Source: Desulfomonilia bacterium
GTDB lineage: Bacteria > Desulfobacterota > Desulfomonilia > UBA1062
Assembly (NCBI GenBank): GCA_963664325.2
Contig: CAXXDQ010000007.1
Coordinates: 64,001-128,000, forward strand
Direction of reading: 5' to 3'
DNA length: 64,000 nt
Of this stretch, positions 5,785-42,433 are shown in pieces. Under the pieces are notes generated by a model that did not search any database, had not been told where the DNA came from, and saw nothing but the letters and a program-made list of their open reading frames with translations. Every line of letters starts with the position of its first letter. Positions within the stretch are counted from its first letter, which is position 1. The position numbers and the translations under genes are program-made.

Positions 5785-6842
<1,058 letters not shown>

Positions 6843-6982
6843 CTACCCGATAAAAGGTTTTACCGTCTTAGCAAAAGCCAATGGCGTTTACAAGAGGAAT
6901 GACATTATTATCTTGAAGCCGCGGCGAAGATCATTAAGAAATAATCAAGCCCCCGGACCGGAATACTCCGGGAGCAATTATT

Positions 6983-7420
6983 TTATTTTGTGACAATCAG
7001 GTGCTCCAGACCCATCTCTTTCAGGGCGACAGGGAACATCCTGAAGGCCGGCCTGACAACAGGAAGAAGTTTTAGCATCGCAGTGACCTTGCCCCCCTGC
7101 TTCACCTTTCCTTTTGCAACAGATGCAATAGGGTTTTCAATACCATGCCAGAAGCGGTGCGAATGGTCCGCCGTCTGTTTGGACCAGACATCTTCCTTGA
7201 GACTGCACGGGCCCAGGTAGAAGTTGCCGTAAATTCCGGGCTTGTTCGGGGGATTCTTGAGGTCGATTGTTATCTCTCCGTCAGGCTCGGTATAGATGAA
7301 TTTGATGATGATCCCGGCCTTTGCCATCTTGGGTCCTATCTTTTCGTCCCTTAAAATCCTGTCAAGAAAGTATCCGTAAATTCTGTAAAGATCGTCAATG
7401 TCCTTGTAGTACTGGCTCAT
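6983..7420 (-). CDS. SCP2 (sterol carrier protein 2)-like lipid-binding protein
   Basis: 145 aa. Pattern (F.Y..PDGEITID ... HRFWHG..NP..SVAKGKVKQGG....MLKL) resembles SCP2-fold proteins. GGAGG RBS. Confidence 0.6.
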   Translation of the reverse strand: MSQYYKDIDDLYRIYGYFLDRILRDEKIGPKMAKAGIIIKFIYTEPDGEITIDLKNPPNKPGIYGNFYLGPCSLKEDVWSKQTADHSHRFWHGIENPIASVAKGKVKQGGKVTAMLKLLPVVRPAFRMFPVALKEMGLEHLIVTK

Positions 7421-7433
7421 TCTTCCCTCCTTG

Positions 7434-7559
7434 ATACAGGGCGTGATAACTTTGCATTCCGGCGTCGCTTCCTTGCCTCGTCATTGCGGCGTACGGCAAT
7501 GTACGCCTCATTCCTCGGCTGCGTTGCTCCTTGGACTGCTTTGTTCTGACGCCCTGTAT
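7434..7559. repeat. 126-bp palindromic MITE/ERIC-like element, copy A
   Basis: Terminal inverted repeat ATACAGGGCGT...ACGCCCTGTAT and central GGCGTAC-N6-GTACGCC. Similar to the reverse complement of 39547..39669. Confidence 0.8.
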
Positions 7560-7602
7560 TTATTATTTCGAGCTGAGCGAGAAATATAGTTTATGATTTA
7601 TT

Positions 7603-7630
7603 CTCACCACTCACCACTCTTAACTCACCA
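7603..7630. repeat. Heptanucleotide tandem repeat (CTCACCA)
   Basis: CTCACCA CTCACCA CTCTTAA CTCACCA just 3' of the acyl-CoA dehydrogenase stop. Confidence 0.7.
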
Positions 7631-7635
7631 CTGCT

Positions 7636-8802
7636 CTACTTACCTTTTCTTTGATCGAAACGGCGGCCATAGAGGAAACTTGCCAATGTGATGCGGAGCA
7701 TCTGTACCGTGCCGCCTGCAACGCACCAGGCCCTGCCGTCCCGGAGCATTCTTTCTACAGGGAACTCCCTGCTGTAGCCGTAGCCGCCCAGCACCTGCAT
7801 TGCAATATTCGTTACCTCTATCACCATTTCGTTGGCAAAGCACTTTGCCATGGAGGCCTCATATACCGACGGCAGGCCCTGGCCGGCCCCGCATGCAGCA
7901 CGGTAGACAAGAAGCCTTGCGGCATCGAGCTTCATCGCCATGTCAACGGTCATGAACTGTATAGCCTGGAAATCGCAGATAGGTCTTCCGAAGGCGCTCC
8001 TTTGCATGGCGTAGTTTTTTGCCTCTTCAAGTGCGCCTGCAGCCACACCGAGGCACATGGCGGAATTCCCGCAGCGTTCGATATCAAATGTGGTCATGAG
8101 TTTTGTAAAATCGCCCTGTCCGATCACCACATTGCTTTTGGGTACCCTGACGTCTTCGAAAATAAGGTCGCATGACGGCATTCCCCTCAAGCCCATGAAC
8201 TCTTCCTGTTTGCCGAATGTAAAGCCGGGCATGCCTTTCTCGACTATGATCCCGCCTATGCCCTTGTAGCCCTTGATGTCGCCGAACCTTGTATAGACCA
8301 TGTAATGGCTTGCATGCCCGCCGCCCGTAATAAATGTCTTGCGGCCGTTCAATATGTAATGATCGCCGTCCTCCACGACATTGGTTCCGAGAGAGGTAAG
8401 ATCGGAACCGACCGCCGGTTCAGTCATGCACACCGAAACGCTTTTTTCACCCTTGCAGACATCCGGAATAATGGAGCGCTTTTGTTCGTCGGTGCCGAAT
8501 ATGTCGATTACCCTGACAGGTCCCACATTGGACTCGAATACAGGGGCCGCTATCATCGGGGAATACCTGGCCAGTTCCTCTATGGCCAGTATCGCATTGA
8601 TTCCGGGCTGGCCGCCTCCGCCGTATTCGGGTGAAAGCGTCATGCCGATCAGTCCCATATCGGCGAATTTCGGCATCAAATGATAGGGGAACTCGCCGGT
8701 TGCATCGATGTGTTTGGCAAGGTCCTTGAACTTTTCACGCTCACCCATCGTCCTTAAGGTCTGGATAAGCATTTTTTGTTCATCGTTAAGGTTGAAATCC
8801 AT
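7636..8802 (-). CDS. Acyl-CoA dehydrogenase
   Basis: MTEPAVGSD, LNGRKTFIT, MGLRG, RSAFGRPI.DFQAIQF and GGYGYSREFPVER motifs. No Glu in the usual C-terminal position (CVAGGT), but FDIERC offers an IVD/LCAD-type Glu. Confidence 0.93.
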   Translation of the reverse strand: MDFNLNDEQKMLIQTLRTMGEREKFKDLAKHIDATGEFPYHLMPKFADMGLIGMTLSPEYGGGGQPGINAILAIEELARYSPMIAAPVFESNVGPVRVIDIFGTDEQKRSIIPDVCKGEKSVSVCMTEPAVGSDLTSLGTNVVEDGDHYILNGRKTFITGGGHASHYMVYTRFGDIKGYKGIGGIIVEKGMPGFTFGKQEEFMGLRGMPSCDLIFEDVRVPKSNVVIGQGDFTKLMTTFDIERCGNSAMCLGVAAGALEEAKNYAMQRSAFGRPICDFQAIQFMTVDMAMKLDAARLLVYRAACGAGQGLPSVYEASMAKCFANEMVIEVTNIAMQVLGGYGYSREFPVERMLRDGRAWCVAGGTVQMLRITLASFLYGRRFDQRKGK

Positions 8803-8822
8803 CTTTTTCTCCTTGTGTTTTA

Positions 8823-10190
8823 TTAAATGGCCTCTGAAAGGGCCTTTATGTCTTTTAGATTCTCAATATCCATTATCATTGCAACAAGCCCATCGATATC
8901 GTTTCTATTACGGTTTACGGCGAAACGGATGATCTTCTGCGTAAGATCGGAGGTGTCCATGGGGTCCCTCGGATCGCCTTTGGGGATATCCACCTGTCTG
9001 GAAAGTGTGGCGCCGTTTTTAAACTTGATTTCCACCCTGCTGGAGGTTTTTTCGGGATATATCTTGTTCAGTTCCTCATCGGCCTTGACGCCGACTTTTT
9101 TCGACAGTGCCAGCACATCGGGGCTGGTAATGCGCTTTTCGGTAAGCTGCAGGGGGCCGAGTTCATTGTCGATCAGGCAGGCTGCAACAACATAGGGGAT
9201 GGAAAACTGTGCTGAGACTATCGTGCCGTTTTCAGGCATGCCCTTGCCGACCGCTACTTCCGCCATGCCATATGTGGCCACGTCAACTTTTTCGATATCG
9301 GATACGGAAAATTTATTTTCCCTCAAAAGGCCGAGCGTCGCCTGTGCCGCCCCGTGTGTATGGCGGCAGGCCGTAAACGGCTTGAAATAGAGGTCTGTTA
9401 TAGTGAAGTGTACGCCGAGCCTGTCGGTTATGCGTTCGGGTTTGGGGTCGACCTTGGAGGTTATCTGGGTAAAGCCTCCTTTCAGGGATGAGCCTTCGAG
9501 AACCTCAGGGCAGCCTGTAATGCCGCATGAAGCAAGCCCTGCCGCCGTGATGCCTGCGCTGGCGGCCTGTCCGCCCTGGACTATCTTTATCGTATATCCG
9601 CCCATGAGCTGCTCGGCCATGGTCAGGGGCAGCAGGTAGCCGGCATTGCCGAATGCATTGAGCATGCCGGATGGATCTAGTTTCATCAGCTTTGCTGCAG
9701 CTGCAGCGGCACCGAACGTCCCGCATGTGCCCGTGGGCAGGAAACCCGAAAGGGTATGATATGGATGCATGGCAGCAGCAGTCCTGTCGGCTGCCTCATA
9801 GCCCGCGATAATTGCTTCCAGGAGTTCAATGCCCGATGAATTATTCGCCTCGGCCAGAGCGAATGCGGCGGGCATAACCGCGCATACAGGGTGGTTTCCC
9901 CCGAACCTCAGGCCATCCTGAGCCTCTATCGATTCCGCCGTCGTCCCGTTGATGAATGCGGCACTAAGCATGCCGGTCTTGAATCCGCAGCCCAGAGCCG
10001 TGGAGGCGCCGCCGCCGCCAAGAGAGCGCATATATGAAACCACCGACTTTACGGCATCGAGTTCGAGCGAACCGTAGATGTTTGCAACATAGTCAAGCAG
10101 GCAGAGTTTGGTTTTATAGACAACTTCTCCAGGAACTTTCTCAAGCTTCAACCCAGAACAGAAATCTGCGAGAATCCTTGTCTCATTCAT
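8823..10190 (-). CDS. MmgE/PrpD family protein
   Basis: LLDY..N..G, AFING, HP, AIIAGYE, KPFTACRHTH, AQFSIPY and PKGDPRDPM motifs. Confidence 0.9.
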   Translation of the reverse strand: MNETRILADFCSGLKLEKVPGEVVYKTKLCLLDYVANIYGSLELDAVKSVVSYMRSLGGGGASTALGCGFKTGMLSAAFINGTTAESIEAQDGLRFGGNHPVCAVMPAAFALAEANNSSGIELLEAIIAGYEAADRTAAAMHPYHTLSGFLPTGTCGTFGAAAAAAKLMKLDPSGMLNAFGNAGYLLPLTMAEQLMGGYTIKIVQGGQAASAGITAAGLASCGITGCPEVLEGSSLKGGFTQITSKVDPKPERITDRLGVHFTITDLYFKPFTACRHTHGAAQATLGLLRENKFSVSDIEKVDVATYGMAEVAVGKGMPENGTIVSAQFSIPYVVAACLIDNELGPLQLTEKRITSPDVLALSKKVGVKADEELNKIYPEKTSSRVEIKFKNGATLSRQVDIPKGDPRDPMDTSDLTQKIIRFAVNRNRNDIDGLVAMIMDIENLKDIKALSEAI

Positions 10191-10213
10191 GATTAACCTC
10201 CAACTGAATAGTT

Positions 10214-10352
10214 GACAGGAGACAGTAGACAGGAGACAGCATGAAAAACCATCAATATGATAGAAGTAGCATTAAAAATGAATATAAGCATGTTTATTAG
10301 GTTGCGTTTTTTGCATTTTAACTGTCTCCTATCTCCTGTCTACTGTCTCCTG
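10214..10352. repeat. Inverted arrays of heptamer repeats (GACAGNA)x4 / (TNCTGTC)x4-5 around an AT-rich spacer
   Basis: GACAGGA GACAGTA GACAGGA GACAGCA at 10214-10241 and the complementary array at 10321-10352. Confidence 0.8.
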
Positions 10353-10356
10353 ATTC

Positions 10357-11157
10357 TCAAACGTAGCCACGCTTTTCGTATATTTTTATCATCCTGAACG
10401 GGTCGAGGATTTCCCTCAGTACCCGCAGCTCTTCGGCTGTCGGCGGCTCCGTCTCATGCGCATCATCGGCGACTTTGAGTTTCCAGGGCGTAAGGCTTAC
10501 TACCTCGTCTATACTGGTGTCAGGGTGCCAGCTCGCGAGGTATGCCTCCTTGGTATCCCTGTCAAACCGCAATACCGCCTTGTTTGTTATGATGACTTCC
10601 GGGCCCGTGTCATCTGGCAATCCCCATTTCTGTCTGGAGCCGGGGCCGTCGAGGTAGCCCGGCGTCGTAATGAAGTCCACCCGTTCGGACAGGCTTCTTT
10701 TGTCGTGCAGGGCAATGATAAGGACCCTTTTTGCAAGCGCTCCGATCGGGTTTGCACCGCCCGAGCCCGGCAGTCTGCTTTTGGGTTTATCGTAACGGCC
10801 GATCACAGTAGTATTTATATTCCCAAATTTGTCCACCTGCGCACCGGCAAGAAATCCCACGTCAACCCAGCCGGCCTGCAGGAACATCCCCATGACCTCG
10901 ATCAGGCCGCCTGTCATTGCAGCACCAGGGTTAAGGCACGGATCGCCGACCGAAAGGGCAGGGCGCAAAGGCCGTGCGTCGAACACACCTGATTCCTGCA
11001 TCATGGTGGCGTCGGGGGCCTGGATGTATTTCGCGATATTGGCGGCCATTGTCGGAAAACCGGTGCCCACTATCACGACGTCGTTGTTCCTGATCTCTCT
11101 CGCGCCGCAGCAGGCCATAAGCTCCGGTTTTATATAATCATTGGGGTGTGTGCTCAT
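10357..11157 (-). CDS. Family I CoA-transferase beta subunit (glutaconate/3-oxoadipate CoA-transferase-like)
   Basis: VGTGFP, catalytic Glu in QESG, AQVDKFGNINTT, RLPGSGGA and VDFITTPG motifs. Confidence 0.9.
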   Translation of the reverse strand: MSTHPNDYIKPELMACCGAREIRNNDVVIVGTGFPTMAANIAKYIQAPDATMMQESGVFDARPLRPALSVGDPCLNPGAAMTGGLIEVMGMFLQAGWVDVGFLAGAQVDKFGNINTTVIGRYDKPKSRLPGSGGANPIGALAKRVLIIALHDKRSLSERVDFITTPGYLDGPGSRQKWGLPDDTGPEVIITNKAVLRFDRDTKEAYLASWHPDTSIDEVVSLTPWKLKVADDAHETEPPTAEELRVLREILDPFRMIKIYEKRGYV

Positions 11158-11169
11158 TATGGGCCTCCG

Positions 11170-12105
11170 TCAGTATGAGTAGCTTGCGGGGTAGCTGTAA
11201 TCGAATTTCGCCTGGAGCTTTTTATACTGGGCAAAACCGAATTTGCCTATGTAATGCTGAATATAACTTTGCCTGTCAGCGCAGCCGAGGACCCATTCGT
11301 CAAGGAAGGCCCTGAAGCCTTCTTCGGTGTTCGAGGCCTGCTGGTAGACATAGCCGAACGAAAAATCCACATCATAAAATCCCGGTGTATATCCGGGGTG
11401 GGCGCCGAAAGGCTCTTCGCAGACTGCCACCACCTTGAACGATGGAACTATGGTACGTGAAGGGTCTTTTCCTACTGTCTCCCGGCTGACTATCCTCTCG
11501 CAGCAGACGATGACCTTATTTGCCGCATTCGCCCCCCACTTGCAGTCGCCGCCTATGCCCCACATCTGGGCGTTGCCGTTTTCATCAGCCTGCTGGACAT
11601 GGATTATGGCCACATCGGGATTCAGCGCAGGCACGAGCATGACAGGCTTCCCGTCGAACGGCGAGTCGATCATCTTGTATTTGTTTTCACCCATGAACGA
11701 CCTGATATTCATCATGTCAGTGCCTACCATGTCTTTGACCGGGACGAACGGCATGCCCATGGCACCTGCCATGAACATCATCGGCAGAGACAGGTTTGTA
11801 TACTCTTCCAGCTCTATCTTATTGGGGATGCCCTTTTCTATTGATCGCCGGAAACACCTTGCAAGCCCGTAAAGTCCAAGTGAGATGAAAGTGGAGATGA
11901 ATCTTTTGACGCAGCCGGCGCCGATAAGCATGTCGAAATCATCGGCGGCGTTGCTTCTCGCAATTGTCAGGCCGGTCTTGCCCTGCCTGATCAACTCGTG
12001 GATTGCGGCAAAAGGAGGACGGCATATATAGCCTCCAATGAAGAGGAAATCGCCGTTACCGACATGCTGTGCAACGGCATCCTTGGTGGTCATAACCTTA
12101 CTCAT
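11170..12105 (-). CDS. Family I CoA-transferase alpha subunit
   Basis: IGG....P.A.IHELIRQG, AGAMGMPF, PALNPDVAIIHVQQADENGN and EEPFGAHP motifs. Confidence 0.9.
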   Translation of the reverse strand: MSKVMTTKDAVAQHVGNGDFLFIGGYICRPPFAAIHELIRQGKTGLTIARSNAADDFDMLIGAGCVKRFISTFISLGLYGLARCFRRSIEKGIPNKIELEEYTNLSLPMMFMAGAMGMPFVPVKDMVGTDMMNIRSFMGENKYKMIDSPFDGKPVMLVPALNPDVAIIHVQQADENGNAQMWGIGGDCKWGANAANKVIVCCERIVSRETVGKDPSRTIVPSFKVVAVCEEPFGAHPGYTPGFYDVDFSFGYVYQQASNTEEGFRAFLDEWVLGCADRQSYIQHYIGKFGFAQYKKLQAKFDYSYPASYSY

Positions 12106-12122
12106 AGTTCAGCTCCGGCTTT

Positions 12123-14501
12123 CTAAAGTTCATACTCGGTTCTGCTTATGATCTCGTTCTGGGCAATCTCGGACAGCCCCGTGAATTCTGCTGAATAGCC
12201 GCTGACCCTCACGAACAGGTCTGCGTACTTTTCGGGATTTTTCTGCGCCTTTCTGAGCGTTGCGGAATCTACCATGTTGAACTGTACCTGCATCCCACCC
12301 CTGTTGAAATACGTCCTTATGAGGGAAAGCAGGTTTTCGGTGCTTATCTTCCTGCCCTGAAAACGTATATTGAGGTTTGCTCCGTTAAAGATTTTGTTCA
12401 GAGGAAGCTTGGCCACTGAATTCATCATCGCAGTCGGGCCGGAGACGGCGTTTCCCGTTGTCGGGGTTATGCCGTTGCCGAGGACATCGCCTGCATGCCT
12501 TCCGTCGGGTGAGGCGGCCGAGAATGCCCCGAAGCTTATATGAAATCCGACCGAGAATATTCCGGGCCAGTATGAGCCGCCCCGGTAATTTCTGTATTTT
12601 GACAGGGTCTCGCAGAAATGCCCGGCAACCCTGGCCGCCATCTCGTCAGCCTCGTCAATGTCGTTTCCGTATTTCGGAACCTTTTTAAGGAAATAGCTGC
12701 GTTTGGGTTCTGCATCCTGCCAGTCCTGGGATAGCCATTCCGAGAGCTGTCCGATGGAATATTTTTTGTCCTCGAAAATGGCTTTTTTAATGGAGTAGAG
12801 GCTGTCGGAGGTATTGGCGAAACCCATGAGCTGAACACCGGTCGAGTTGTAGACGGCGCCTCCTTTCGTGAGGTCAATTCCCTTGTCCATAGGGCCTTCG
12901 ACCATTGCGGAAGCAAAGGGGGAGGGCACGTTTTCCGCTATCGACCTGTCGAGCACAGTCATACCCTTTGCCATCTGGTTTATGAAATGGTTCATCTGTG
13001 TATCATATGCGTTCCAGACATCTTCAAAACTTTCAAACGAGGCCGGATCCCCTGTTTCGGGTCCGGACTGGTATCCGAAGATGTTGTCGATCCCGTTCGA
13101 GAGCGCCAGTTCGACGCATTTTATACCGTTGAACTGTACGGCGAATGTCGAGCCGAAGGTCTTGCCCTGGGCGCTCGGCTCAAGACATCCGACAACACCG
13201 TAGTTCCTGGCATCTTCAAGAGTATGTCCTGCGCCTACCAGATTTTCCACTATGGCCTCGTCGTTGAAGAAATGCATTAGCACCCCGTCTCTGGCATAAT
13301 CTATGGCCTTTTTAAAGAAATCCTTGGGCGTTTTCTTGCAGACCCTGACACCGAAATTGGGCTGCACCGTCCTGATGTCGGCATACGCCTCAAGGCCAAC
13401 CAGACTGAGTTCGTTTGTCGCATCATTACCGTCAGGACCGAGACCTCCTACGGTGACGTTTTGCGTCGTCTTGCCTTCCGTTCCTTCTCCTCCCGGGATG
13501 AATGCCTCTTCCAGCACGTTCCATATCTCGTTCGTTTTGATGAAGAGCAGAGACAGGAGCTCCTGCGCATGCTCCGCGGTAATCCTGCCTGCCTTCCTGT
13601 CTTTCTGATAATATGGATTGAGTATCTGGTCTATGCGTCCCAGGGATATGGAGTTTCCTCCCGACTCTATCTGAGCAGCCAGATGAATGAAGTATATGCT
13701 CTGCACCGCCTCATGGAAGCTTTGAGCGGGATTTTCGGGGACCCGGCTGCAGACCTTTGCGATCTCAAGAAGTTCCTCGGCGCGCTCCTTATCGGGTTCG
13801 TTTGCCGCCATCTCTCTTGCCTTGTCGCTGTAGCGGTTTGCGAACATGACAGCCGCCTTCATGGAGCGTATCATGGACTGATAAAATATGCCCTTCTCCG
13901 ATTTCTTTTCATCGGGGCTTAAAGAACTGAACTTTTCTTCCGCCTCGGCAATAATGCCCTTAAGTCCCTTGGCAAGGACCTTTTCATGGTTCATGGTGAA
14001 GTGGCCGATACCGTAGGTAATCTCGAGCATCATGGTAAATATATATTTGTCCATGTCCTCTTCGACATCAGCGGGAAGGGCTTTTTCCATGACCTCTTCC
14101 ACTGACCTCCCTTTCCAGAAGGGAAGGATCCCGTCTCTTAGTTCGTCTTTTTCGGCTTCTGTGATAAGAGCCCTCTGGAGAAGCCTTATCTCGAATGCGT
14201 CAAGGTCGCCTTCTATCCAGCGCGACTTGTTCTCGGGGAATAAAGGGGCGCCCTTGAGCTTCTCCGTCCGGCATCCTACTATGATTTCGTCTTCCCTGAT
14301 TATGACACTGATGTTTTTCAGGATATGCTCAAAGGCAAGGCTGATGCGCTCAAGGGGATGACATCCCCAGTTTTTGCGCATGGATTCTGTAAGATACCTT
14401 GCGCGCTCGATGCAAACCTCCTGAGGCGCGTGAATTATCCTGTTCCTCAGTTTATGAACCCTGGTGTCTTCGATCTTGAGTGCAGCGTTTGTATTTTTCA
14501 T
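12123..14501 (-). CDS. Glycyl radical enzyme 1 (PFL-like superfamily, eliminase-type, substrate unknown)
   Basis: C-terminal glycyl radical loop VRVSGYS and Cys loop VVGCLEP. About 790 aa. ATG 14501 with GGGGG RBS. Confidence 0.93.
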   Translation of the reverse strand: MKNTNAALKIEDTRVHKLRNRIIHAPQEVCIERARYLTESMRKNWGCHPLERISLAFEHILKNISVIIREDEIIVGCRTEKLKGAPLFPENKSRWIEGDLDAFEIRLLQRALITEAEKDELRDGILPFWKGRSVEEVMEKALPADVEEDMDKYIFTMMLEITYGIGHFTMNHEKVLAKGLKGIIAEAEEKFSSLSPDEKKSEKGIFYQSMIRSMKAAVMFANRYSDKAREMAANEPDKERAEELLEIAKVCSRVPENPAQSFHEAVQSIYFIHLAAQIESGGNSISLGRIDQILNPYYQKDRKAGRITAEHAQELLSLLFIKTNEIWNVLEEAFIPGGEGTEGKTTQNVTVGGLGPDGNDATNELSLVGLEAYADIRTVQPNFGVRVCKKTPKDFFKKAIDYARDGVLMHFFNDEAIVENLVGAGHTLEDARNYGVVGCLEPSAQGKTFGSTFAVQFNGIKCVELALSNGIDNIFGYQSGPETGDPASFESFEDVWNAYDTQMNHFINQMAKGMTVLDRSIAENVPSPFASAMVEGPMDKGIDLTKGGAVYNSTGVQLMGFANTSDSLYSIKKAIFEDKKYSIGQLSEWLSQDWQDAEPKRSYFLKKVPKYGNDIDEADEMAARVAGHFCETLSKYRNYRGGSYWPGIFSVGFHISFGAFSAASPDGRHAGDVLGNGITPTTGNAVSGPTAMMNSVAKLPLNKIFNGANLNIRFQGRKISTENLLSLIRTYFNRGGMQVQFNMVDSATLRKAQKNPEKYADLFVRVSGYSAEFTGLSEIAQNEIISRTEYEL

Positions 14502-14634
14502 ATAGTCCCCCTTAGTCACAGAATATGTGCTCGCCAGACAGAATTCAACAGCAGGTGAAGAAGAAAATCATTTTCAGTTCTAATTCCTAAAAAATATTTT
14601 TCTTATTCCCGCATTAATGTTCTGTCTTCCGTAT

Positions 14635-15456
14635 TTACACCTTTATGTGCATGTAGCTTACAAGTATCTTGTCCCTGACGCTGACAGGGAGGAAACGGTT
14701 GAGCATCTGAAGGAAACCGCTGCCGGCGTCGATCTGGTTGAATATCTTCGGCTTGTCCGCAGTCACGACCTTTACTATTCTCTTTGCGGCAAATTCAGGG
14801 GTAGGCGCTGTCTTTATCAATTCGTTGTCACGGTCAATGAATCTTTTGGCCCTGTCACGGTAGGGCGAGCCTTCAGGCGGCAGGAAATGTATTTTTGCGG
14901 CGAATGTAGTGGAGACCTGAGCCGGCTCTATCAGGGCGATGCGGATGCCGAAGGGTTCGACCTCGTGCTTGAGCGAGAGCACCATTCCAGTTACTGCAAA
15001 TTTGCTGGCCGAATATATCGATTCGAAAGGAAATGGAATTCTGCCTACGAGCGAAGACATGGCGACAAGCTTTCCATGACCCTGCTTGCGCATCGACGGG
15101 ATAAAGGCCTGGAAGATTGCGGCTGCACCGATCACATTGATCTCGAGGCATTTGAGCGCCTTTTCAAGGCTTACCTCTTCGAAAGGGCCGAAAAAACCGA
15201 TGCCGACATTGGAGAGAACCGTGTCAACCGAACCATACCTTTTTAAAACTTCATCCCTGAAATTAAGGATGCCTGCGCGGTTGGTGATGTCCATGTCCGT
15301 GAGATAATGTTTGTCCCCCAGCTCTTTGCGAAGCGTTTCAACCCCGGATTTGTCGACATCGAAACCGGCTATCGTGTAACCCTGCTGGGCAAGCATCTTT
15401 GCAACATGCCTTCCCATCCCGTCTGCAAGTCCCGTAATTACTATTACATTTCCCAT
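14635..15456 (-). CDS. Classical short-chain dehydrogenase/reductase
   Basis: TGLADGMG, SNVG, MSS and catalytic YSASK. Confidence 0.92.
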   Translation of the reverse strand: MGNVIVITGLADGMGRHVAKMLAQQGYTIAGFDVDKSGVETLRKELGDKHYLTDMDITNRAGILNFRDEVLKRYGSVDTVLSNVGIGFFGPFEEVSLEKALKCLEINVIGAAAIFQAFIPSMRKQGHGKLVAMSSLVGRIPFPFESIYSASKFAVTGMVLSLKHEVEPFGIRIALIEPAQVSTTFAAKIHFLPPEGSPYRDRAKRFIDRDNELIKTAPTPEFAAKRIVKVVTADKPKIFNQIDAGSGFLQMLNRFLPVSVRDKILVSYMHIKV

Positions 15457-15487
15457 CTTTGACCTCCTGGTATATTTATCTTATTTT

Positions 15488-15613
15488 ATTCCGCTTCGCA
15501 TTCAAGCGCTCCCTTTGTCGGCCTCGTCGGAATTCTCCTCGACATACGTCAAAAGTATGCCTGCGTCGATCCCTCCTTGCCTCCTCGGTATCATCTTGAA
15601 TGCAAAACGGAAT
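15488..15613. repeat. 126-bp palindromic element, copy C (divergent termini)
   Basis: ATTCCGCTTCGCATTCAAG...CTTGAATGCAAAACGGAAT termini and central GACATAC-N7-GTATGCC. Same length and register as copy A. Confidence 0.7.
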
Positions 15614-15617
15614 GGGT

Positions 15618-16598
15618 TCATTGATTCCGGTACCATTCTTTCATCTGAGCCATGGATAATCTGAAGTCCGGGTAAATGAGCTTGTACCCCGTGGCCTTCA
15701 ACTTGGAATTGTCCACGACATAATCGTAATAAAGGTATTTCACCGCATCATATTCCAGATCCGGGATCTTGCCCTTCTTGGCGGAAACAGCCCCGTCGAT
15801 TCTGGCTACGGCCTTGACGAGCCACAGCGGCAGGTGGAGCTTGGGAGGTTTAGTGCCGAAGGTTTTAGCTGCAAGCGTCAAGGCTTCGCCTATCTGCGGA
15901 TAAGTGTCCTCTGCGATGTTATAAGCCTGCCCGACGGCGCTTTCTATGTGGGAGAGATGGTCAACGGCGGCGGCGACGTCTTCGGCCCTTATGTTTGAAA
16001 GAAGCTGGCGGCCGCTTCCCGGGATCGCCGTGATCGATGTCGGCCTGGAAAAGGCCTTGCCGGCCCCGTCATTGCACCGGGGTCCGTAGACTGTGCACGG
16101 TCTTGTGATAATAGCCGGGAAACCTTCTCTGATCTTACGCCACAGAACATCCTCCCCGTCCCGTTTGCTCCTGCCGTAACTGTCCTGCGGGTCCCTGGGG
16201 CCGTCCTCTCTGAAGGGAGTGCCCTTGTAGTAACCGTAAACGCTTGTCGATCCGACATGCACATAGCATTTAACGCCCGCTTTGGCCGCCTCTGACGTGA
16301 TGCGGTCAACCCCGACAACATTTGTGGGATACAGCTTTTCATATGGTGTCGAGAAATTGCATATGGCGCCGAGATGGAAGATACGGTCAACCCCGCCTTT
16401 GAAGAGGGGAGGTATGGTTTCCGGCTTCGTAAGGTCAGCAGCTACGTACTCCACGCCGAGTTTCTCAAAAAATGAAATATCTTTCCTGGGCCTGGCGCTG
16501 GCTCTCACGCGTACGCCTTTTTTTGCGAGATATTCAACCAGGTGGCTGCCCATGAAACCAGCCGCGCCTGTAACAAGGGTAATACCTGAAAACTCCAT
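15618..16598 (-). CDS. Extended SDR / NAD-dependent epimerase-dehydratase (3-beta-HSD-like)
   Basis: TGAAGFMG, HLGA, STSVYG, YGRSK and RPCTVYGP motifs. Confidence 0.9.
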   Translation of the reverse strand: MEFSGITLVTGAAGFMGSHLVEYLAKKGVRVRASARPRKDISFFEKLGVEYVAADLTKPETIPPLFKGGVDRIFHLGAICNFSTPYEKLYPTNVVGVDRITSEAAKAGVKCYVHVGSTSVYGYYKGTPFREDGPRDPQDSYGRSKRDGEDVLWRKIREGFPAIITRPCTVYGPRCNDGAGKAFSRPTSITAIPGSGRQLLSNIRAEDVAAAVDHLSHIESAVGQAYNIAEDTYPQIGEALTLAAKTFGTKPPKLHLPLWLVKAVARIDGAVSAKKGKIPDLEYDAVKYLYYDYVVDNSKLKATGYKLIYPDFRLSMAQMKEWYRNQ

Positions 16599-16635
16599 GA
16601 AAAACCTCCTTTAGGGCGTTATTAATTCATATACT

Positions 16636-16691
16636 GACAGGCAGCCGTTTCAATGACGTCTTAAGAGTGCCGGCTCCCAGGCCTGCCTGTC
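16636..16691. repeat. Intergenic inverted repeat
   Basis: GACAGGCAG (16636-16644) and CTGCCTGTC (16683-16691) between padR and the epimerase gene. Confidence 0.5.
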
Positions 16692-16754
16692 CTTTTATTT
16701 GCTAACTCCTTGACCTGCTGCGCTCAAGAGTGTCCGTTCCACTGCAAGGTTATT

Positions 16755-17312
16755 TCATATGCTCAACGAAAAATAATCTTTGTCGGTAATGTTATCTTCA
16801 ATCTGTTTTCTGGCCGTTTTCAGCCACTCGAGATACATTTCATTAAATGTGACCCCGAGATTGGACAGAAGTTTTACATACGGCCCCTGACTTTGCCACC
16901 TCAGGGAATTGCTGGTTCGCCTTTCCAGCTGTGCCTCGTATGAGGCGATCTGTGAGTCAATTATTCTCAAAACATCTTCCGGTCCGCCAAATCCGAAAAA
17001 TGCGAATTTAAGCAGAAAGGGATCGCGAAGAAGCATGGATTTGTCTACCGGCTCCTTAAGCCATTCGGAAAAAACCTCACGCCCCTTGTCTGTAATTGAA
17101 TAAAGTTTGCGCCTAGGCCCCTGTCTGCTGGCAGGAGAGGATTTAAGCATTCTGATGAGCCCTTTATTTTCAAGGTCTTTCAATATAGGATAAATCTGGC
17201 CGAAGTTGACAGACCACATATGGCCGAAATTGTTTTCGAGATGCTCCTTGATGCGATAGCCGTGCATATCACGGTATTGGAGAAGACCAAGCACTGCATA
17301 ATTCAGCGACAT
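16755..17312 (-). CDS. PadR family transcriptional regulator (AphA-like, long C-terminal domain)
   Basis: VLGLL....HGY.I, W..NFGQIYP.L..LE..G, RKLYSITDKG and EWL motifs. Confidence 0.93.
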   Translation of the reverse strand: MSLNYAVLGLLQYRDMHGYRIKEHLENNFGHMWSVNFGQIYPILKDLENKGLIRMLKSSPASRQGPRRKLYSITDKGREVFSEWLKEPVDKSMLLRDPFLLKFAFFGFGGPEDVLRIIDSQIASYEAQLERRTSNSLRWQSQGPYVKLLSNLGVTFNEMYLEWLKTARKQIEDNITDKDYFSLSI

Positions 17313-17339
17313 CTGACCTCCATTCTAAATATGCAAATC

Positions 17340-17360
17340 ACTATATACAATCTATATAGT
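17340..17360. promoter_or_regulatory. Palindromic operator upstream of padR (putative autoregulatory site)
   Basis: ACTATATA-caatc-TATATAGT perfect 8-bp inverted repeat, about 30 bp before the padR ATG. Minus-strand TTGACT at 17379-17374. Confidence 0.6.
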
Positions 17361-17506
17361 TTAATTTTTATGAAGTCAAACTAAAAAAAATTGATTTTAA
17401 GACTTTTCCCCTACCCTTGAATAAATTTGAGATACTTGTTGGATTGATGTTAAGGTGCATTCGGAATAAAAATAATAAAGGGAAAAGGATTGAAAGTTCT
17501 ATTTTC

Positions 17507-19150
17507 TTATCTTAACGCCCTTCCGAGGTTCTCGAGAGTAGGCGGATAATCAAACCGGCCCACGCAGACTTCAATGAAAACCATTTTATCCTTGTGCTCC
17601 TGCGCCGCTTTCAGCGCTTCTTCAAGACCGCCTTCGGTATCAACCCTGAAACTTATCCGACCGCCGAAAATTTCAGGGAGCTTGTGATATTGCCAGGGCT
17701 GGATGTCGTTATAAATGTTGTCGTAAATCACCCGCTCGATTTGGTAGCCGTCATTGTTTATCAGAAACACCACAGGATTCTGACCGTTCCTGATGATTGT
17801 TGAAAGCTCCTGGCAGGTCATCTGAAAAGCACCGTCGCCGATTATAACAACGGGCCTGCTTTCCGGTTTTGCGAATTTAACCCCAATCGAAGCAGGCAGG
17901 CTGTAGCCAATCGAGAGGTAAAAATCCTGTGCAAGCATCAAGGCGTCTTCCGGCAGGTGCATGGCAGCGCTTTCTAATGTTGCACTCCCTGCATCGGCAA
18001 CAATGATATGCCCTTTACCAATGAAGCGGTTCAGCCTTTCCCAGAACCTTTTTGATGTCATTCTGGCATTTTTACGGGGGATGTAGGCACTGTCAAGCAG
18101 ATGGGACGGATGGTCTTTATCCTTCAGGCGGCATTTCCCTGCCTTAACCTTCCGGGTCAATTCCCTGACAAAAAGCTCAAGCGGAACGTTTTCATAATAA
18201 TGGTTTTTTATCCTGACCGAATTGACATAAGCATAAATCATTTTTTCCTGATCGAGCCTTGATGTAAACAGCCCTATATTGAAGTCGGTAAAGAGAACAC
18301 CGAGGACGAGCAGGGCATCGGCGTCTTCTATCAAATGCCTGGTCCTGCTGCTAAGAAGCTTCGAACTGTATGTCCCGATGAAATTAGGCAGGGTTTCAGG
18401 TATCATGCCCTTGCTGCTCATGGTAGAGGAGACTGCAAAACCCGATCGCATTAAAAACCTGAACAATTCATCTTCTATTCCGAGTTTTGTGAATGCGGCA
18501 CCTGCATAAACAGCAGGCCTCTTAGCAGATTTTATCATTGAAAACGCCTCCTTCACAGATTCTTTAAGGGCGTTTTCATCAAGGGGTATGCACATGTCAG
18601 GGTTCCAGTCTCCGGGCCTGTCGCATTCCGCCTGAACAATGTCAGCGGGTATTTCTATAAAAACCGGCCTTCTGAACAAAAGGCAGTCGTTTATCACCCT
18701 GTCAATCTCGGAAGGGGCTTTGTCCGGGTCAGACAGCAGCGCTGCCGATGCGGTTATCTTGTCATATATATCAGTTTGAAGGTTTGAATGGCCCGCTATA
18801 TGGTGGAGCAGGCCCTCATGGTCTTTCCTGAGCGACAGTTTGGGGCCTCCGCATATCGCAATGACCGGGACATGTTCGGCATATGCTCCTGCAATTGCGT
18901 TGAGGAGACTGAAAGCGCCGACTCCATATGTCACGCATACGGCTCCTGCGCCGTTAAACCGTGCATAGGCGTCTGCCGCATAACCGGCATTAAGCTCATT
19001 GCATGTGCCAACGACCTTGATTGAGCTGTCCTCAAGCATGTCGAAAAATTTAAGGACATAATCCCCCGGGATACCGAATATATGCCTGATGCCTATCTGT
19101 TTAAGCCTTGCAATAATGTATTCACCGACAGTGGTTTTCTTTTTTAGCAT
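17507..19150 (-). CDS. ThDP-dependent 2-oxo-acid decarboxylase (pyruvate/indolepyruvate/phenylpyruvate decarboxylase family)
   Basis: GIPGDY, NELNAGYAADAYAR, LLHH and the GDGAFQM...NNDGY.IER ThDP motif. Confidence 0.93.
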   Translation of the reverse strand: MLKKKTTVGEYIIARLKQIGIRHIFGIPGDYVLKFFDMLEDSSIKVVGTCNELNAGYAADAYARFNGAGAVCVTYGVGAFSLLNAIAGAYAEHVPVIAICGGPKLSLRKDHEGLLHHIAGHSNLQTDIYDKITASAALLSDPDKAPSEIDRVINDCLLFRRPVFIEIPADIVQAECDRPGDWNPDMCIPLDENALKESVKEAFSMIKSAKRPAVYAGAAFTKLGIEDELFRFLMRSGFAVSSTMSSKGMIPETLPNFIGTYSSKLLSSRTRHLIEDADALLVLGVLFTDFNIGLFTSRLDQEKMIYAYVNSVRIKNHYYENVPLELFVRELTRKVKAGKCRLKDKDHPSHLLDSAYIPRKNARMTSKRFWERLNRFIGKGHIIVADAGSATLESAAMHLPEDALMLAQDFYLSIGYSLPASIGVKFAKPESRPVVIIGDGAFQMTCQELSTIIRNGQNPVVFLINNDGYQIERVIYDNIYNDIQPWQYHKLPEIFGGRISFRVDTEGGLEEALKAAQEHKDKMVFIEVCVGRFDYPPTLENLGRALR

Positions 19151-19359
19151 TCTTTCACCTCTTATAAGAAACCGTATCACTTGATTATATTGCTTCCCGG
19201 TAATCTTGCCTTTTCCATGATCTCATCTTTCAACCGTATACCGGCTTTATCGTATAATAGATTTGCCGACTTGAAATAAAACTTTTGTAATGCCCGAGGA
19301 GACAGGGAATTTGTGGGGATGCTCAAGGCGTCTTCCGCGGCATGAACCTCTCAGTCAGA

Positions 19360-19809
19360 TTAAACGGACTTGTCCTTGCCCCTGAGACCCCACAGCAGGA
19401 TAACGCATGTTACAAGTATGGCGATTGCCATTGAAGTAAGACAAAATTTAATTATTGCCTCCTGTATGGGCGTACCCAGCGCACCTGCACCAGACATTGG
19501 CATCATGGACTGGCCAGCTCCAAGGGCCGCCGCTGTAAGGGTGGTCGCCCAGTTGGCATAGGCACCGTAAATGGCCAGCCAGAATGTGATTATATAAACG
19601 GGCTTTGACAGCCGGAGCCTTGGCCATATCAGGCCTACCACGGCCAGAAACGTGCCGCTCATCACGCCTTCGAGGTGGCTTGAAAGACCCATTCGGGGAT
19701 TGGCCAGCATAGGGACTGTCAAGCCTGAGAGAAGCCCGAGAAAGAACAGAAGAATGCCGTAGCGTACCAGACGGCGGCCGGCTTGTTGCCCTGAGTAATC
19801 ATTTTCCAT
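19360..19809 (-). CDS. HabB-like (hydroxylaminobenzene mutase) small membrane isomerase
   Basis: RRL...G..LF.LGLL.G...P..ANPRMGLSSHLEG...G.FL...GL.WP and YG.YANW closely match HabB as I recall it. About 4 TM helices. Confidence 0.75.
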   Translation of the reverse strand: MENDYSGQQAGRRLVRYGILLFFLGLLSGLTVPMLANPRMGLSSHLEGVMSGTFLAVVGLIWPRLRLSKPVYIITFWLAIYGAYANWATTLTAAALGAGQSMMPMSGAGALGTPIQEAIIKFCLTSMAIAILVTCVILLWGLRGKDKSV

Positions 19810-19965
19810 AACACCTCCGTAAATCCCGAATATTTTGATTTATAAGTCCAACTATCAATATACATGATGACTGGTTCCGCTATTGTTTTAACCGCACCAT
19901 GATTCAATATCCTTTTTTACGATACTGCTCTTAAAATCAAAACATTTATGATTTCACTGTCCGCA

Positions 19966-20913
19966 TCAGGGAAACATCCGGGCCGCATTTCCTTTCTCGA
20001 CAGCAAGAAGCTCTTCGCCGCTGAAACCTTCAAATGACTGAAGGCCGGAAACTGTGAGCCCTGTTATGATTTCAGGTGCAAACGGGTAATCACTGCCGAA
20101 GAGGATATGTGTTGCGTCCACAAGCTCTTTGATGGAGCGCATGGCAAAGGGCGAGGCGGCAAGGGCGGTGTCGTAATTCAGGCATTTCAAGTATGATATG
20201 GCATCCTTCGGGGCCTTTTCCAAAGCATTCGGGATGACAAAGGACCCGAGCGCTATGCGCCAGGCCAGGTACGGGGCGGCGCCCCCTGCGTGCGCGAAAA
20301 TGAAAGGGATGTCCGGATACCTTTGAAGGGTGCCGCTGAATATCAGGTTGACAATGGCACGGGTCGTATCGAAAGCCACTTCAAAAAGGAAATTGGGGAT
20401 ATGCATTCCAAGCGGATTGCTGCCCGGCGGGTCGGTTGGATGAACAAATACGGGCGTTTTGCGCCGGTTGAGTTCACAGAATACATCTTCAAACGCCGGG
20501 TCGCCGAGATAGGTGCCCGAATAGTTTGTCAGGAGCACCACCCCGTCGAGCTTTAATGCTTCAAGGCTGTATTCAAATTCCTTCAGCGCAGCACCCGCAT
20601 CCGGAAGGGGAAGCGTGGCGAAGGCGCCGAAACGCCCGGGATAATCGGTAATAAGCCGGGCCGATGCCTCATTGCACTGCCGTGCGAGCCGGGCGGCAAA
20701 AGCAGTATCGCCGAAGAAAACGCCTGGGCATGAGATTGATGTTATTGCAGTCTCAATGCCGTTGCGGTCCATAACGCCAAGCGCCGTTTCCGCGTCCCAT
20801 CGGGGAAATGACGCCCCGATGGAATTCGTGATGCCGATGCCGGCCAGGGCGCGCACATATTCCGGCGGCACGATATGGTGATGTACATCGATACGGTGCG
20901 GGGCCTTGATCAT
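19966..20913 (-). CDS. Amidohydrolase-2 family metal-dependent decarboxylase/hydrolase (ACMSD/LigW/6-methylsalicylate decarboxylase-like)
   Basis: IDVHHH, VFVHP, DTTRA, AHAGG and LFGSDYPF motifs. Confidence 0.9.
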   Translation of the reverse strand: MIKAPHRIDVHHHIVPPEYVRALAGIGITNSIGASFPRWDAETALGVMDRNGIETAITSISCPGVFFGDTAFAARLARQCNEASARLITDYPGRFGAFATLPLPDAGAALKEFEYSLEALKLDGVVLLTNYSGTYLGDPAFEDVFCELNRRKTPVFVHPTDPPGSNPLGMHIPNFLFEVAFDTTRAIVNLIFSGTLQRYPDIPFIFAHAGGAAPYLAWRIALGSFVIPNALEKAPKDAISYLKCLNYDTALAASPFAMRSIKELVDATHILFGSDYPFAPEIITGLTVSGLQSFEGFSGEELLAVEKGNAARMFP

Positions 20914-21057
20914 AAAAATCCTCTTTTTTTTGTTTCAAGACATATTATCAAAGTTGCTTGATATATTCCAGAGATACCGCATACAGTTTCATCCTGGGTA
21001 TTTCTATGACTGTTCTGTCAATGGTATCTTCCGCCGGGTCTTTAAAGGTTTCCTGAT

Positions 21058-21759
21058 TCAATATCTGGATGCCCTTTTCGCAATGGCATCAAGCAGTCCG
21101 GGCAGTGCGATTCTGTTTGCAATGTTGACGGCGCCTGCCGGGAGGCTGCCCCCCGGGTTTGTCCAGACATAATACGTAATTCTCGTTTTGCCCGGGACAC
21201 CGGCCGGTTCTATCTGGAAGTACCCCTGGTTGAAGGTGGTCTCCACGGCATTCTCAGGGCTGGTGAGAAAACTCCTGATGTCCGGGTCCGTAGGCAACCT
21301 CCTGTATGCGCCTTTTTCAAGAACCCAGTCTGACCTGAACATTTCAGGATTGCCGGTGTAGTTGTAAACATCGGTGTATCTGAGGTTGTAGAACCTCGAA
21401 GATATGGCGGGAATGGGTACGTCAAGGAAGGTGAAGACATAGTTTAAAAATACATCCTTTGATTTCTGTTCGGTATGGACCAGTTTAGTGTATTTCACAT
21501 AAGGCATGAATTCGCTGAAATGAACATAGTCCGTTATCGCGGCAATCACCTGGCCTGGATTCCTTTCGACCACACCGATAAGCAGGACCTCCTGCGTGTC
21601 CGAATCCTGCTTGTTCCTGCTGTAAGTCCTGTAATATTTGCCGCTTGATTTTAATGTCCAGTCCGTGTCGTCTTTTTGAGGGGAGAGATTTAATGCAGAG
21701 AGCGCGGAGAATTGAAATAATGCAAAGATGAATACCAGGAGGAACAGGGCCCTTTTCAT
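21058..21759 (-). CDS. Secreted START/SRPBCC-fold lipid-binding protein
   Basis: Sec signal (MKRALFLLVF...ALSA). D...F.EFMP, ISSR.Y, N.G.FQIEP and T.ITY....NPGGSLP..AVN motifs. Confidence 0.8.
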   Translation of the reverse strand: MKRALFLLVFIFALFQFSALSALNLSPQKDDTDWTLKSSGKYYRTYSRNKQDSDTQEVLLIGVVERNPGQVIAAITDYVHFSEFMPYVKYTKLVHTEQKSKDVFLNYVFTFLDVPIPAISSRFYNLRYTDVYNYTGNPEMFRSDWVLEKGAYRRLPTDPDIRSFLTSPENAVETTFNQGYFQIEPAGVPGKTRITYYVWTNPGGSLPAGAVNIANRIALPGLLDAIAKRASRY

Positions 21760-21760
21760 T

Positions 21761-24343: not shown

Positions 24344-24679
24344 TCAATCTTCTCCCTGTTGATCACATTACATGCAAATAAAATATACTCCTGAACAGGT
24401 CCCGGGTAAATGTCAAATGCCTTTGAAATTACCGGTGGTTGTTGTGCAATTTAAATCATGCCGACTGTCCGGCTTTGCGGGGTTCAAAATGAATCGCCGA
24501 AGTCAACGGAAGCGCAAGTTGAAAGTTCTGCCGAACCAGCCGGGCCCGGCAAAACCCACCGGCGCCATATAGGCTCCGTCCCCTGGGATGTCCATGACCA
24601 CGATTCGGCCGTTTCAGGGGATCGCCGGTTACCAGATGCGCTATGTTGTTCATAGTGAGAGAACTTATATGCCCCGGAT

Positions 24680-28084: not shown

Positions 28085-28136
28085 CGTTACCTCCACTGTA
28101 TTCTGATTTCAGGGTTCAGTGCTTCAAAAAACATGT

Positions 28137-29621: not shown

Positions 29622-29839
29622 ACGTACCTCCTCATGTCCAATGGCCGTTCGTCCCGCTGAAGACAAAAACGGCAAGCACAATCTCCTTTTTATGTCCGTA
29701 GGTCATGAATTACAAGTGTAATCTGATCAAACAGGCAAGAGCCTCGACGATGCCGTGACAGTATGCTATACATAAATTTATTGCGCGATAAGAACCGGTA
29801 AAAAATATTCGCATGCTGTAATGAGGGGGGTTTGAAGAA

Positions 29840-31432: not shown

Positions 31433-31461
31433 AATGACCGGGATGCAGGCCGGATTGTTCC

Positions 31462-32595: not shown

Positions 32596-32608
32596 ATCGC
32601 ATCTCCTT

Positions 32609-34198: not shown

Positions 34199-34227
34199 TA
34201 TATCAGCTCCTTTACTAATATTATCGA

Positions 34228-35916: not shown

Positions 35917-35939
35917 GCCACCTTTGATTAAAGCCTTAA

Positions 35940-41943: not shown

Positions 41944-41962
41944 GTCGGACTCCTTATAAAGA

Positions 41963-42397: not shown

Positions 42398-42433
42398 GAT
42401 TTTTACCTCCTGTCAGAAGATCGGATGTTTCAT

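Follow-up and report, generated by a model that had tools for sequence, protein, structure and literature searches.

A PadR-headed cassette conserved across bacterial phyla joins a predicted eliminase-type glycyl radical enzyme to a putative SCP2-fold carrier

The window analysed in this work, a 64,000-nucleotide stretch of contig CAXXDQ010000007.1 from a Desulfomonilia bacterium, carries nine co-directional minus-strand open reading frames (ORFs) in a row between positions 6983 and 17312. The row plausibly makes up an operon, under the control of PadR, for the breakdown of an amphiphilic compound that bears hydroxyl groups. A glycyl radical enzyme (GRE), which appears to belong to a new eliminase-type clade, is predicted to catalyse the key step of the operon, the formation of an aldehyde or ketone, which would then be oxidised, activated as a coenzyme A (CoA) ester and dehydrogenated. 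A rough probability of 0.55 may be assigned to this reading. The genes run in the order PadR, extended and classical short-chain dehydrogenase/reductase (SDR), GRE, CoA-transferase alpha and beta, MmgE/PrpD-like protein, acyl-CoA dehydrogenase (ACAD), and a protein of 145 amino acids (aa) called here p145. Pfam and NCBIfam, used for the assignment of the ORFs to families, place eight of them; the ninth, p145, has no match. The features of the locus are:

16755-17312, minus strand: PadR regulator, 185 aa; PF03551 (72.6 bits) and, at the C-terminus, PF10400 (Vir_act_alpha_C, 35.9 bits)
15618-16598, minus strand: extended SDR of the 3beta-HSD / HpnA / OleD-like type, 326 aa; PF01370 (111.6 bits)
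14635-15456, minus strand: classical SDR of the 17beta-HSD-like group, 273 aa; PF00106 (149.2 bits)
12123-14519, minus strand: GRE of the eliminase/isomerase type, ORF of 798 aa; PF02901 (677.1 bits) and PF01228 (98 bits)
11170-12105, minus strand: CoA-transferase alpha, glutaconate CoA-transferase type; PF01144
10357-11157, minus strand: CoA-transferase beta; PF01144, catalytic Glu E55 in QESG
8823-10190, minus strand: divergent MmgE/PrpD-family protein, 455 aa; PF03972 and PF19305
7636-8802, minus strand: ACAD, 388 aa; four ACAD Pfam domains
6983-7420, minus strand: p145, 145 aa, SCP2 fold by AlphaFold (AF2) model and Foldseek, putative carrier of a hydrophobic ligand
17342-17358, no strand assigned: candidate inverted-repeat operator upstream of padR, with a TATATA-N5-TATATA core

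According to the coordinates, the intergenic gaps from PadR to p145 measure 156, 161, 115, 17, 12, 166, 20 and 215 nt. Packing is tight in the GRE-alpha-beta (17 and 12 nt) and PrpD-ACAD (20 nt) segments, the remaining gaps ranging from 115 to 215 nt. The mreBCD-pbp2 genes lie downstream of the cassette; upstream are found a thiamine pyrophosphate (TPP) decarboxylase gene and, farther off, a second, distant GRE. Nine co-directional genes with a palindrome at their head had been reported in a preliminary description of the locus, and the ORF list, the Pfam/NCBIfam assignments and the repeat scan all agree with it.

Related loci were searched by a scan of one genome per species, and the best 78 of 108 loci, all from metagenome-assembled genomes, were retained. 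Their gene content was established by tblastn with the proteins of the window, and exceptions were judged where flanks were complete. All nine genes are present, in the same order and on the same strand, in 30 of the 78 loci, most of the remaining loci being truncated where the contig stops. The clustering of the nine genes is therefore far beyond chance; the gene combination singled out in the preliminary description is real, and the conservation of the neighbourhood, proposed there as a check, is borne out. GRE identity ranges from 64 to 88% across the 78 loci, which are labelled as at least five phyla. By title, 40 loci are ‘delta’ or Thermodesulfobacteriota (many Syntrophales or Smithella), 18 spirochaetes, 8 Chloroflexota, 5 ‘Bacteriovoracaceae’, 3 Syntrophomonadaceae, one is an actinomycetotal and one a fibrobacterotal locus, and 2 carry no label. 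The GRE tree shows a compact family, well separated from the second GRE of the window. Phylum labels are mixed, the starred branches forcing at least five changes for the spirochaete label, and Chloroflexota are nested among ‘delta’ rows. Such intermixing fits a horizontal spread of the cassette. Within the order to which the window belongs, p145, a marker free of paralogues, was found in 15 of 52 genomes (9 of the 34 of high quality), and the distribution traced by this marker is patchy within genera. A search of 5.8 billion proteins with the GRE gave 1367 sequences at E<=1e-100 among 7996 candidates scored; matches carry generic names only, and the best 120 are all at least 71% identical.

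Some loci depart from the complete set. Four Chloroflexota loci with full flanks lack PadR and have p145 moved upstream, and PadR is missing, again with full flanks, also in L066. Two Dehalococcoidia loci hold the GRE-transferase-PrpD-ACAD block: in L023 nothing else is recognisable (SDRs, PadR and p145 are missing within 10 kb on either side), and in L052 PadR and p145 are missing over the same range. Conversely, a short form made of SDR-SDR-GRE-p145, which lacks transferase and PrpD genes, is found in seven loci, six of which are devoid of ACAD too.

PadR orthologues, 47-90% identical, head the cassette in relatives. An inverted repeat (ACTATATA-N5-TATATAGT) lies just upstream of padR, directly after a TTGAC -35-like hexamer. 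The pattern TATATA-N3-9-TATATA occurs once in the 64-kb window (17342-17358), and shuffled sequences give an expectation of 0. The same pattern is found in 42 of 47 padR upstream regions and in 18 of 920 random 250-nt pieces from the same loci, and TTGAC immediately 5’ of the repeat in 40 of 47 and 13 of 920, respectively. The arrangement is the same before padR in relatives of several phyla. Thus, both the winged-helix domain (PF03551) of a PadR protein and a palindromic candidate operator at its own promoter are present. A generic scan of the 6700-17600 region for promoters and terminators returned counts at shuffle level. A look-up of sequencing runs brought up entries of a single study, with no RNA data among those listed.

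The GRE passes the cut-off of one NCBIfam model only, TIGR01774, which describes the broad PFL2/glycerol-dehydratase subfamily (698 bits, cut-off 678). With every NCBIfam equivalog model the score is at most 57% of the cut-off (score/cut-off: HpfG 572/1000, HpsG 493/1000, HypD 553/1100, CutC 495/1050, PflD 528/1109, IAD 389/1100, HPAD 304/1150, PFL 158/994). The nearest solved relative is the glycerol dehydratase (GD) of C. butyricum (1r8w, 597 bits), followed by two propanediol dehydratases (PD), 5i2a (553 bits) and 9rco (518 bits), the latter being listed as GRM3 PDH (PMC12756279). Identity to E. coli YbiW and PflD is 33% and 34%, respectively, and to the second GRE of the window 37%. The glycyl radical domain (PF01228) carries the sequence RVSGYS, whose G774 is shared by all 28 family sequences aligned; the glycine in the wording RVxG[FWY] is taken here as the mark of the GRE superfamily. 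The Cys-x-Glu (CXE) motif reads GC445-L-E447-P, and is aligned to C433/E435 of GD. H173 is aligned to GD His164, and S290 to GD Ser282; all four residues, C445, E447, H173 and S290, are invariant in the 28 sequences. CXE marks GRE eliminases and isomerases; its Cys abstracts hydrogen, GD Glu435 deprotonates the C1-OH, and GD His164 protonates the leaving OH (PMC13450708, here and below cited for its available sections, as is PMC12290011). Orthologues are mostly 792-795 aa long, and for this reason the true start of the GRE is probably the ATG at 14501, which gives a protein of 792 aa.

The pocket is altered around this core. Four residues common to GD and PD (N156, H281, D447 and Y640), presumably lining the pocket, are replaced by L165, N289, F459 and F655, each invariant among the 28 aligned family members. 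GD Y339, a Phe in PD, is replaced by a Thr, again invariant in the alignment. Judged from its residues, the GRE is an intact eliminase core with a changed, more hydrophobic pocket; it appears not to be isofunctional with GD or PD, and the scores set it apart from any curated equivalog. No Arg was seen in the two segments aligned to GD pocket stretches, a weak negative for the sulfonate-binding Arg/Gln/Arg, IslA and HpsG being outside the alignment. The replacement of Asp by Phe at GD position 447 was considered as a sign that an ether is cleaved, and dropped: PflD, which cleaves ethers, retains His-Asp, and YbiW has a Gly there.

The second GRE of the window (860 aa, 21761-24343, minus strand; neighbours within 17507-28096) carries two insertions (about columns 153-190 and 212-239 of the alignment) which the other aligned GREs do not show, and no activase gene is near it. 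Its neighbours encode the TPP decarboxylase, an amidohydrolase_2 protein, a DUF3108-like protein, two acetoacetate-decarboxylase-like proteins, a DUF362 protein, and a 233-aa protein whose N-terminus resembles a signal peptide and which gives a weak polyketide-cyclase/START-like match.

Another partner of the GRE is p145. The protein has no match in NCBIfam or in Pfam, the latter searched up to E<=10 and including PF02036, and its profile retrieves SCP2-like proteins among PDB sequences at E 0.13-0.15 only. An AF2 model built from 24 orthologues, whose mean column identity is 81%, reached a pLDDT of 93.4. Searched with this model, Foldseek returned 36 structures at E<=0.001, with SCP2 proteins in the lead; top matches are human SCP2 and the SCP2-like domain of MFE-2 (E 3e-7, target-normalised TM 0.77-0.81). 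The label ‘SCP2-like’ given earlier to this ORF thus stands for the fold, and not for the sequence family. p145 is retained also in the short variants of the cassette, and as an SCP2-fold protein it may act as the carrier of a hydrophobic ligand. Runs of a GRE-p145 complex prediction scored 0.51, 0.13 and 0.14, the mark being 0.32. Another SCP2 protein is encoded in the window (41963-42397); it is recognisable by Pfam, and unrelated in sequence to p145 (E 0.76).

Both SDRs resemble lipid-handling enzymes below family thresholds. The extended SDR, which shows TGxxGxxG and YxxxK, is best matched in NCBIfam by HpnA (103.9 bits, cut-off 367.65), then by SdmB and OleD, all below cut-off; the classical SDR, which shows TGxxxGxG and YSASK, by NF004823 (195.8, cut-off 310) and KdsR (150, cut-off 400). 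By general sequence rules, the former looks NADP-dependent, and the latter, with an Asp after strand 2, NAD-dependent. The closest solved relatives of the CoA-transferase subunits are GctA (1poi_A, 198 bits) for alpha, and GctB (1poi_B, 193.6 bits), with the ESG motif aligned, for beta. The QESG of the beta subunit (E55) is invariant in 47 of 47 sequences, and its Glu is presumably the catalytic residue. The ACAD is closest to clostridial butyryl-CoA dehydrogenases (280 bits); best NCBIfam models are 3-sulfinopropanoyl-CoA desulfinase (346, cut-off 600) and the acryloyl-CoA reductase AcrC (343, cut-off 640). The canonical Glu in the YEGT sequence of Bcd has given way to Gly (VAGGT) in all 44 sequences aligned, and every one of them has Glu243, within FDIER. 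Since Glu243 falls at what we take to be the site of the catalytic base of isovaleryl-CoA dehydrogenase, the ACAD is likely active with a displaced base.

The MmgE/PrpD-like protein is divergent. Among solved proteins it comes nearest to IDS epimerase (118 bits), and a distant relationship links it to cis-aconitate decarboxylases as well. Members of the family form an enolate next to a carboxylate by means of a catalytic His and two enolate-stabilising Lys, and the substrates known all have a succinate backbone (PMC12290011). IDS His99 is kept as H100, and both Lys are kept as the invariant K202 and K270. By contrast, His85 is replaced by E86, Tyr145, the second catalytic base, by T146, and His150 by L151; these changes argue against a two-base epimerase, and perhaps also against a classical dicarboxylate substrate.

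Extra ORFs found in and around the cassette were clustered and annotated, and are counted out of the 78 loci. Aldehyde-handling enzymes are the commonest addition. An aldehyde:ferredoxin oxidoreductase (AOR) is encoded in 21 loci, directly after p145 in 17 of them; a non-acylating aldehyde dehydrogenase (ALDH) in 7 and an iron alcohol dehydrogenase (Fe-ADH) in 3, the latter two being inserted within or beside the cassette, mostly between SDR and GRE. A carrier of the major facilitator superfamily (MFS) is found in 7 loci. The closest model is that of a conjugated bile-salt carrier (172, cut-off 400); the protein resembles also lactate and oxalate/formate carriers, and the lactate match is again below cut-off. 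Six loci encode a PON-like arylesterase/SGL beta-propeller with an N-terminal membrane anchor, and a 472-aa DUF362 protein is encoded between the two CoA-transferase genes in 6 (e.g. L017:13421-14839, L073:8433-9851). In two short-form loci an AMP-forming ligase replaces the transferase; for the one in L067 the best resemblances are to the model of a long-chain fatty-acid CoA ligase (418, cut-off 476) and to steroid-24-oyl-CoA synthetase. In 4 loci p145 is followed by a genuine GRE activase (TIGR02494, 330 bits). DUF362 proteins are repeatedly encoded next to GREs, the second GRE of the window (DUF362 gene at 26202-27299, minus strand) included, and one of 799 aa is encoded near the cassette in L062.

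From gene content, catalytic residues, conservation, SCP2 fold and companion genes in relatives a reaction for the GRE, an order of steps and a class of substrates may be proposed. PadR would leave the operator when substrate is present, and an activase encoded elsewhere in the genome would install the glycyl radical at G774. The C445 thiyl radical would take hydrogen from a carbinol carbon, E447 would deprotonate the hydroxyl of that carbon, and H173 would protonate an oxygen leaving group, either hydroxyl or alkoxy, on the neighbouring carbon; the C-O bond would then break, to give an aldehyde or a ketone. The SCP2-fold p145 would hold the greasy substrate or product, and the two SDRs would act on secondary or primary alcohol groups, adjusting or oxidising them. 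The aldehyde may be turned into an acid by AOR or ALDH, whose genes relatives carry within the cassette and this genome at other sites, the Gct-type transferase would make the CoA ester of the acid, and the ACAD would desaturate it for a beta-oxidation-like breakdown. The PrpD-like enzyme may carry out an enolate-type step (isomerisation, elimination or decarboxylation) on a carboxylate intermediate, adjusting alpha-carbon centres. A free aldehyde, activated with CoA only afterwards, is suggested by the fact that the commonest added genes encode aldehyde-handling enzymes, and lie beside the GRE or the SCP2 gene.

A hydrophobic, hydroxylated substrate, already envisaged in the preliminary description, is still the most economical reading. 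It is in keeping with the SCP2 fold of p145, the hydrophobic substitutions in the pocket, the lipid-like resemblance of the SDRs, the anchored PON-like esterase, the resemblances of the L067 AMP ligase, and that of the MFS carrier to a bile-salt carrier.

Several observations weigh against the proposed operon function. The window’s own cassette has neither an aldehyde-oxidising gene nor an activase, and no activase is encoded in the window. The genome has about eight GREs and four TIGR02494-type activases, and each of the four lies beside, or is fused to, another GRE. They are 37-41% identical to the cassette-linked activase over the longest stretches (58% over 72 residues), and the AOR paralogues of the genome share no more than 36-39% identity with the AOR linked to cassettes; in this genome no clear orthologue of either cassette-linked protein was found. 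The ‘lipid-like’ label of the SDRs comes from sub-threshold family resemblances, and the readings of SDR cofactors and ACAD base use sequence rules that we assume to hold. The Asp common to GD and PD is lost in the GRE, and the substrate could consequently be no vicinal diol at all; in turn, since PflD keeps His-Asp, the change of Asp into Phe is by itself no argument for an ether leaving group. Lastly, the PrpD-like step finds no explanation in the scheme. The known MmgE/PrpD substrates, being substituted succinates (PMC12290011), would suggest polar dicarboxylates rather than lipids, and the Gct-type transferase and the oxalate/formate- or lactate-type MFS carrier point in the same direction. 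As to the activases, the radical-SAM gene at 42681-43589 was ruled out as a candidate, as its product is a PTO1314-family member and does not appear among the TIGR02494 matches. Outside the window, a 1124-aa frame at C7:866181-869375 of the same genome looks like an activase-GRE fusion, with a GRE activase match at the start and a glycyl radical domain at the end.

In a first alternative the pathway would deal with a polar hydroxy-acid or lactone, and not with a lipid. A PON/SGL-like hydrolase would open a lactone to a dihydroxy-acid, the GRE would dehydrate the latter to a semialdehyde, and a substituted succinate or other dicarboxylate, formed by oxidation of the semialdehyde, would be handled by transferase, PrpD-like protein and ACAD. 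CoA-transferase, MmgE/PrpD isomerase and ACAD are indeed the components of the characterised methylsuccinate module, and the succinate backbone is shared by all MmgE/PrpD substrates known (PMC12290011); glutaconate CoA-transferase is the nearest relative of the two transferase subunits (198 and 194 bits), the resemblances of the MFS protein include lactate and oxalate/formate carriers, and 6 loci have a lactonase-like gene. However, the PrpD-like protein has no counterparts of IDS-epimerase His85, Tyr145 and His150, seven loci keep GRE, SDRs and SCP2 protein but neither transferase nor PrpD genes, and an SCP2-fold partner, a membrane-anchored esterase and the hydrophobic changes in the pocket suit a small polar acid poorly. 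This route is on balance unlikely.

An ordinary glycerol or 1,2-propanediol dehydratase operon is a second alternative, in which CoA transfer and an ACAD acting like acryloyl-CoA reductase would feed a 3-hydroxypropionate/acrylate or propionate branch. The closest solved structures are those of GD (597 bits) and PD (553 and 518 bits), and the ACAD resembles acryloyl-CoA reductase and 3-sulfinopropanoyl-CoA desulfinase, enzymes which both act on C3 acyl-CoAs. Yet the four GD/PD pocket residues are all replaced, by residues which are themselves invariant; no microcompartment genes reside in the cassette; and the GREs form a tight clade, 64-91% identical across phyla, which denotes a specificity of its own. 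Moreover, the SCP2 protein and the two SDRs would have no role, and we regard the hypothesis as quite improbable. Scarcely credible is the order of steps put forward in the preliminary description, by which the GRE would dehydrate or cleave an acyl-CoA: the GRE and transferase genes are only 17 and 12 nt apart, and adjacent in most loci, but seven loci keep SDR-SDR-GRE-SCP2 and lack the transferase/PrpD pair, the aldehyde-handling genes flanking the GRE or the SCP2 gene point to a free aldehyde product, and no characterised GRE in the available sections of PMC13450708 uses a CoA ester.

If the compound degraded is amphiphilic, as favoured here, the cassette might be the missing anaerobic route attacking the glycerol, polyol or alkoxy-ethanol head of ether- or polyol-type amphiphiles. 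The SCP2-fold chaperone would feed the lipid to the GRE, and water or an alkoxy group would be expelled next to the ketyl radical. Candidate substrates are monoalkyl glycerol ethers, bacteriohopanepolyol side chains, long-chain 1,2-diols and alcohol-ethoxylate surfactants. Such a specific assignment is tentative, and rather doubtful as it stands.

Other gene groups of the window are worth mentioning. A stretch at 39676-43589 (minus strand), in which the Pfam-recognisable SCP2 protein and the PTO1314-family radical-SAM gene mentioned above are found, encodes also a 785-aa fusion of a GFO/IDH/MocA oxidoreductase and an M24 peptidase/creatinase-like protein, and is followed by an ADP-forming acyl-CoA synthetase-like gene and an enoyl-CoA hydratase gene. 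A sugar-use cluster (28137-37325) includes genes for a GH30 protein, a 530-aa YdjC-domain protein, a DUF2961 protein, an FGGY kinase, an MFS_2 carrier, and an L-fucose-isomerase-like protein for which domain matches are weak. Directly after GspH-like and N-methyl pilin-like genes (50448-51855) lies a 1297-aa ORF (52813-56706, plus strand), which has no Pfam match at 1e-5.

No class of anaerobic radical enzymes is growing faster than the GRE eliminases, which include whole clades without an assigned function (PMC13450708). The clade described here is large, tightly conserved across phyla, patchy within the order of the window, and associated with fixed and unusual partners. Identifying the substrate would add a new GRE reaction, and probably also a new anaerobic pathway for the degradation of an abundant environmental compound; it would moreover assign functions to a divergent PrpD-like enzyme, a displaced-base ACAD and a bacterial SCP2-fold protein. 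Should the head of amphiphiles be the target, the enzyme would be the first lipid-handling GRE, and could explain lipid shortening in anoxic sediments, peat and digesters.

The eliminase class of GREs, its mechanistic residues and each of the partner families are already known; new, relative to the available sections of PMC13450708 and to the literature found, are the GRE clade, its pocket and the gene combination. The GREs treated in the review are GD, PD, HpfG, HypD, HpyG, HpzG, CutC, IslA/IseG, HpsG, HplG, YbiW and PflD, and in its available sections none has a context matching that of the cassette. No equivalog cut-off is reached either, and the claim that the locus stands apart from characterised GRE loci is upheld. 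Literature searches, most subscription journals being outside their scope, retrieved no description of the cassette; a limonene paper (PMC12583861) is unrelated, and describes a fumarate-adding GRE.

Among known systems, the benzylsuccinate and alkylsuccinate pathways share with the cassette the clustering of a GRE gene with CoA-transfer, ACAD and SDR genes. In contrast to their enzymes, the cassette GRE has CXE and groups with eliminases (BSS 282 and MasD 286 bits, against 597 for GD), and no small subunits are seen in the cassette. The methylsuccinate module consists of itaconate CoA-transferase, an MmgE/PrpD methylsuccinate isomerase and methylsuccinyl-CoA dehydrogenase (PMC12290011), thus of the same three enzyme classes which are found side by side in the cassette. 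The transferase of the latter, however, is of family I (Gct type), and not the itaconate CoA-transferase which the module uses; in the PrpD-like protein neither the second catalytic base nor the two His are present; and the three-enzyme part is coupled to a GRE and optional in relatives. YbiW, PflD and HpsG cleave C-O or C-S bonds next to a ketyl radical, and offer a precedent for a neighbouring carbon losing sulfite or an ether oxygen in place of water (PMC13450708). CXE and the conserved His and Ser are shared with the cassette GRE, as seen in the alignment with YbiW and PflD, but identity to the two is only 33% and 34%, HpsG and HpfG models score at about half of their cut-offs, and the cassette has no sugar-phosphate or sulfonate genes. 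GD (1r8w/1r9d) and PD (5i2a, 9rco) are the nearest among solved structures: the glycyl site, the Cys-x-Glu, and the equivalents of GD His164 and Ser282 are all shared, and diol-dehydratase operons have aldehyde-handling companions, as relatives of the cassette do. In contrast to GD and PD loci, microcompartment genes are missing from the cassette, the activase is usually not adjacent, and the companions of the GRE are an SCP2-fold protein, two SDRs, a Gct-type transferase, a PrpD-like protein and an ACAD.

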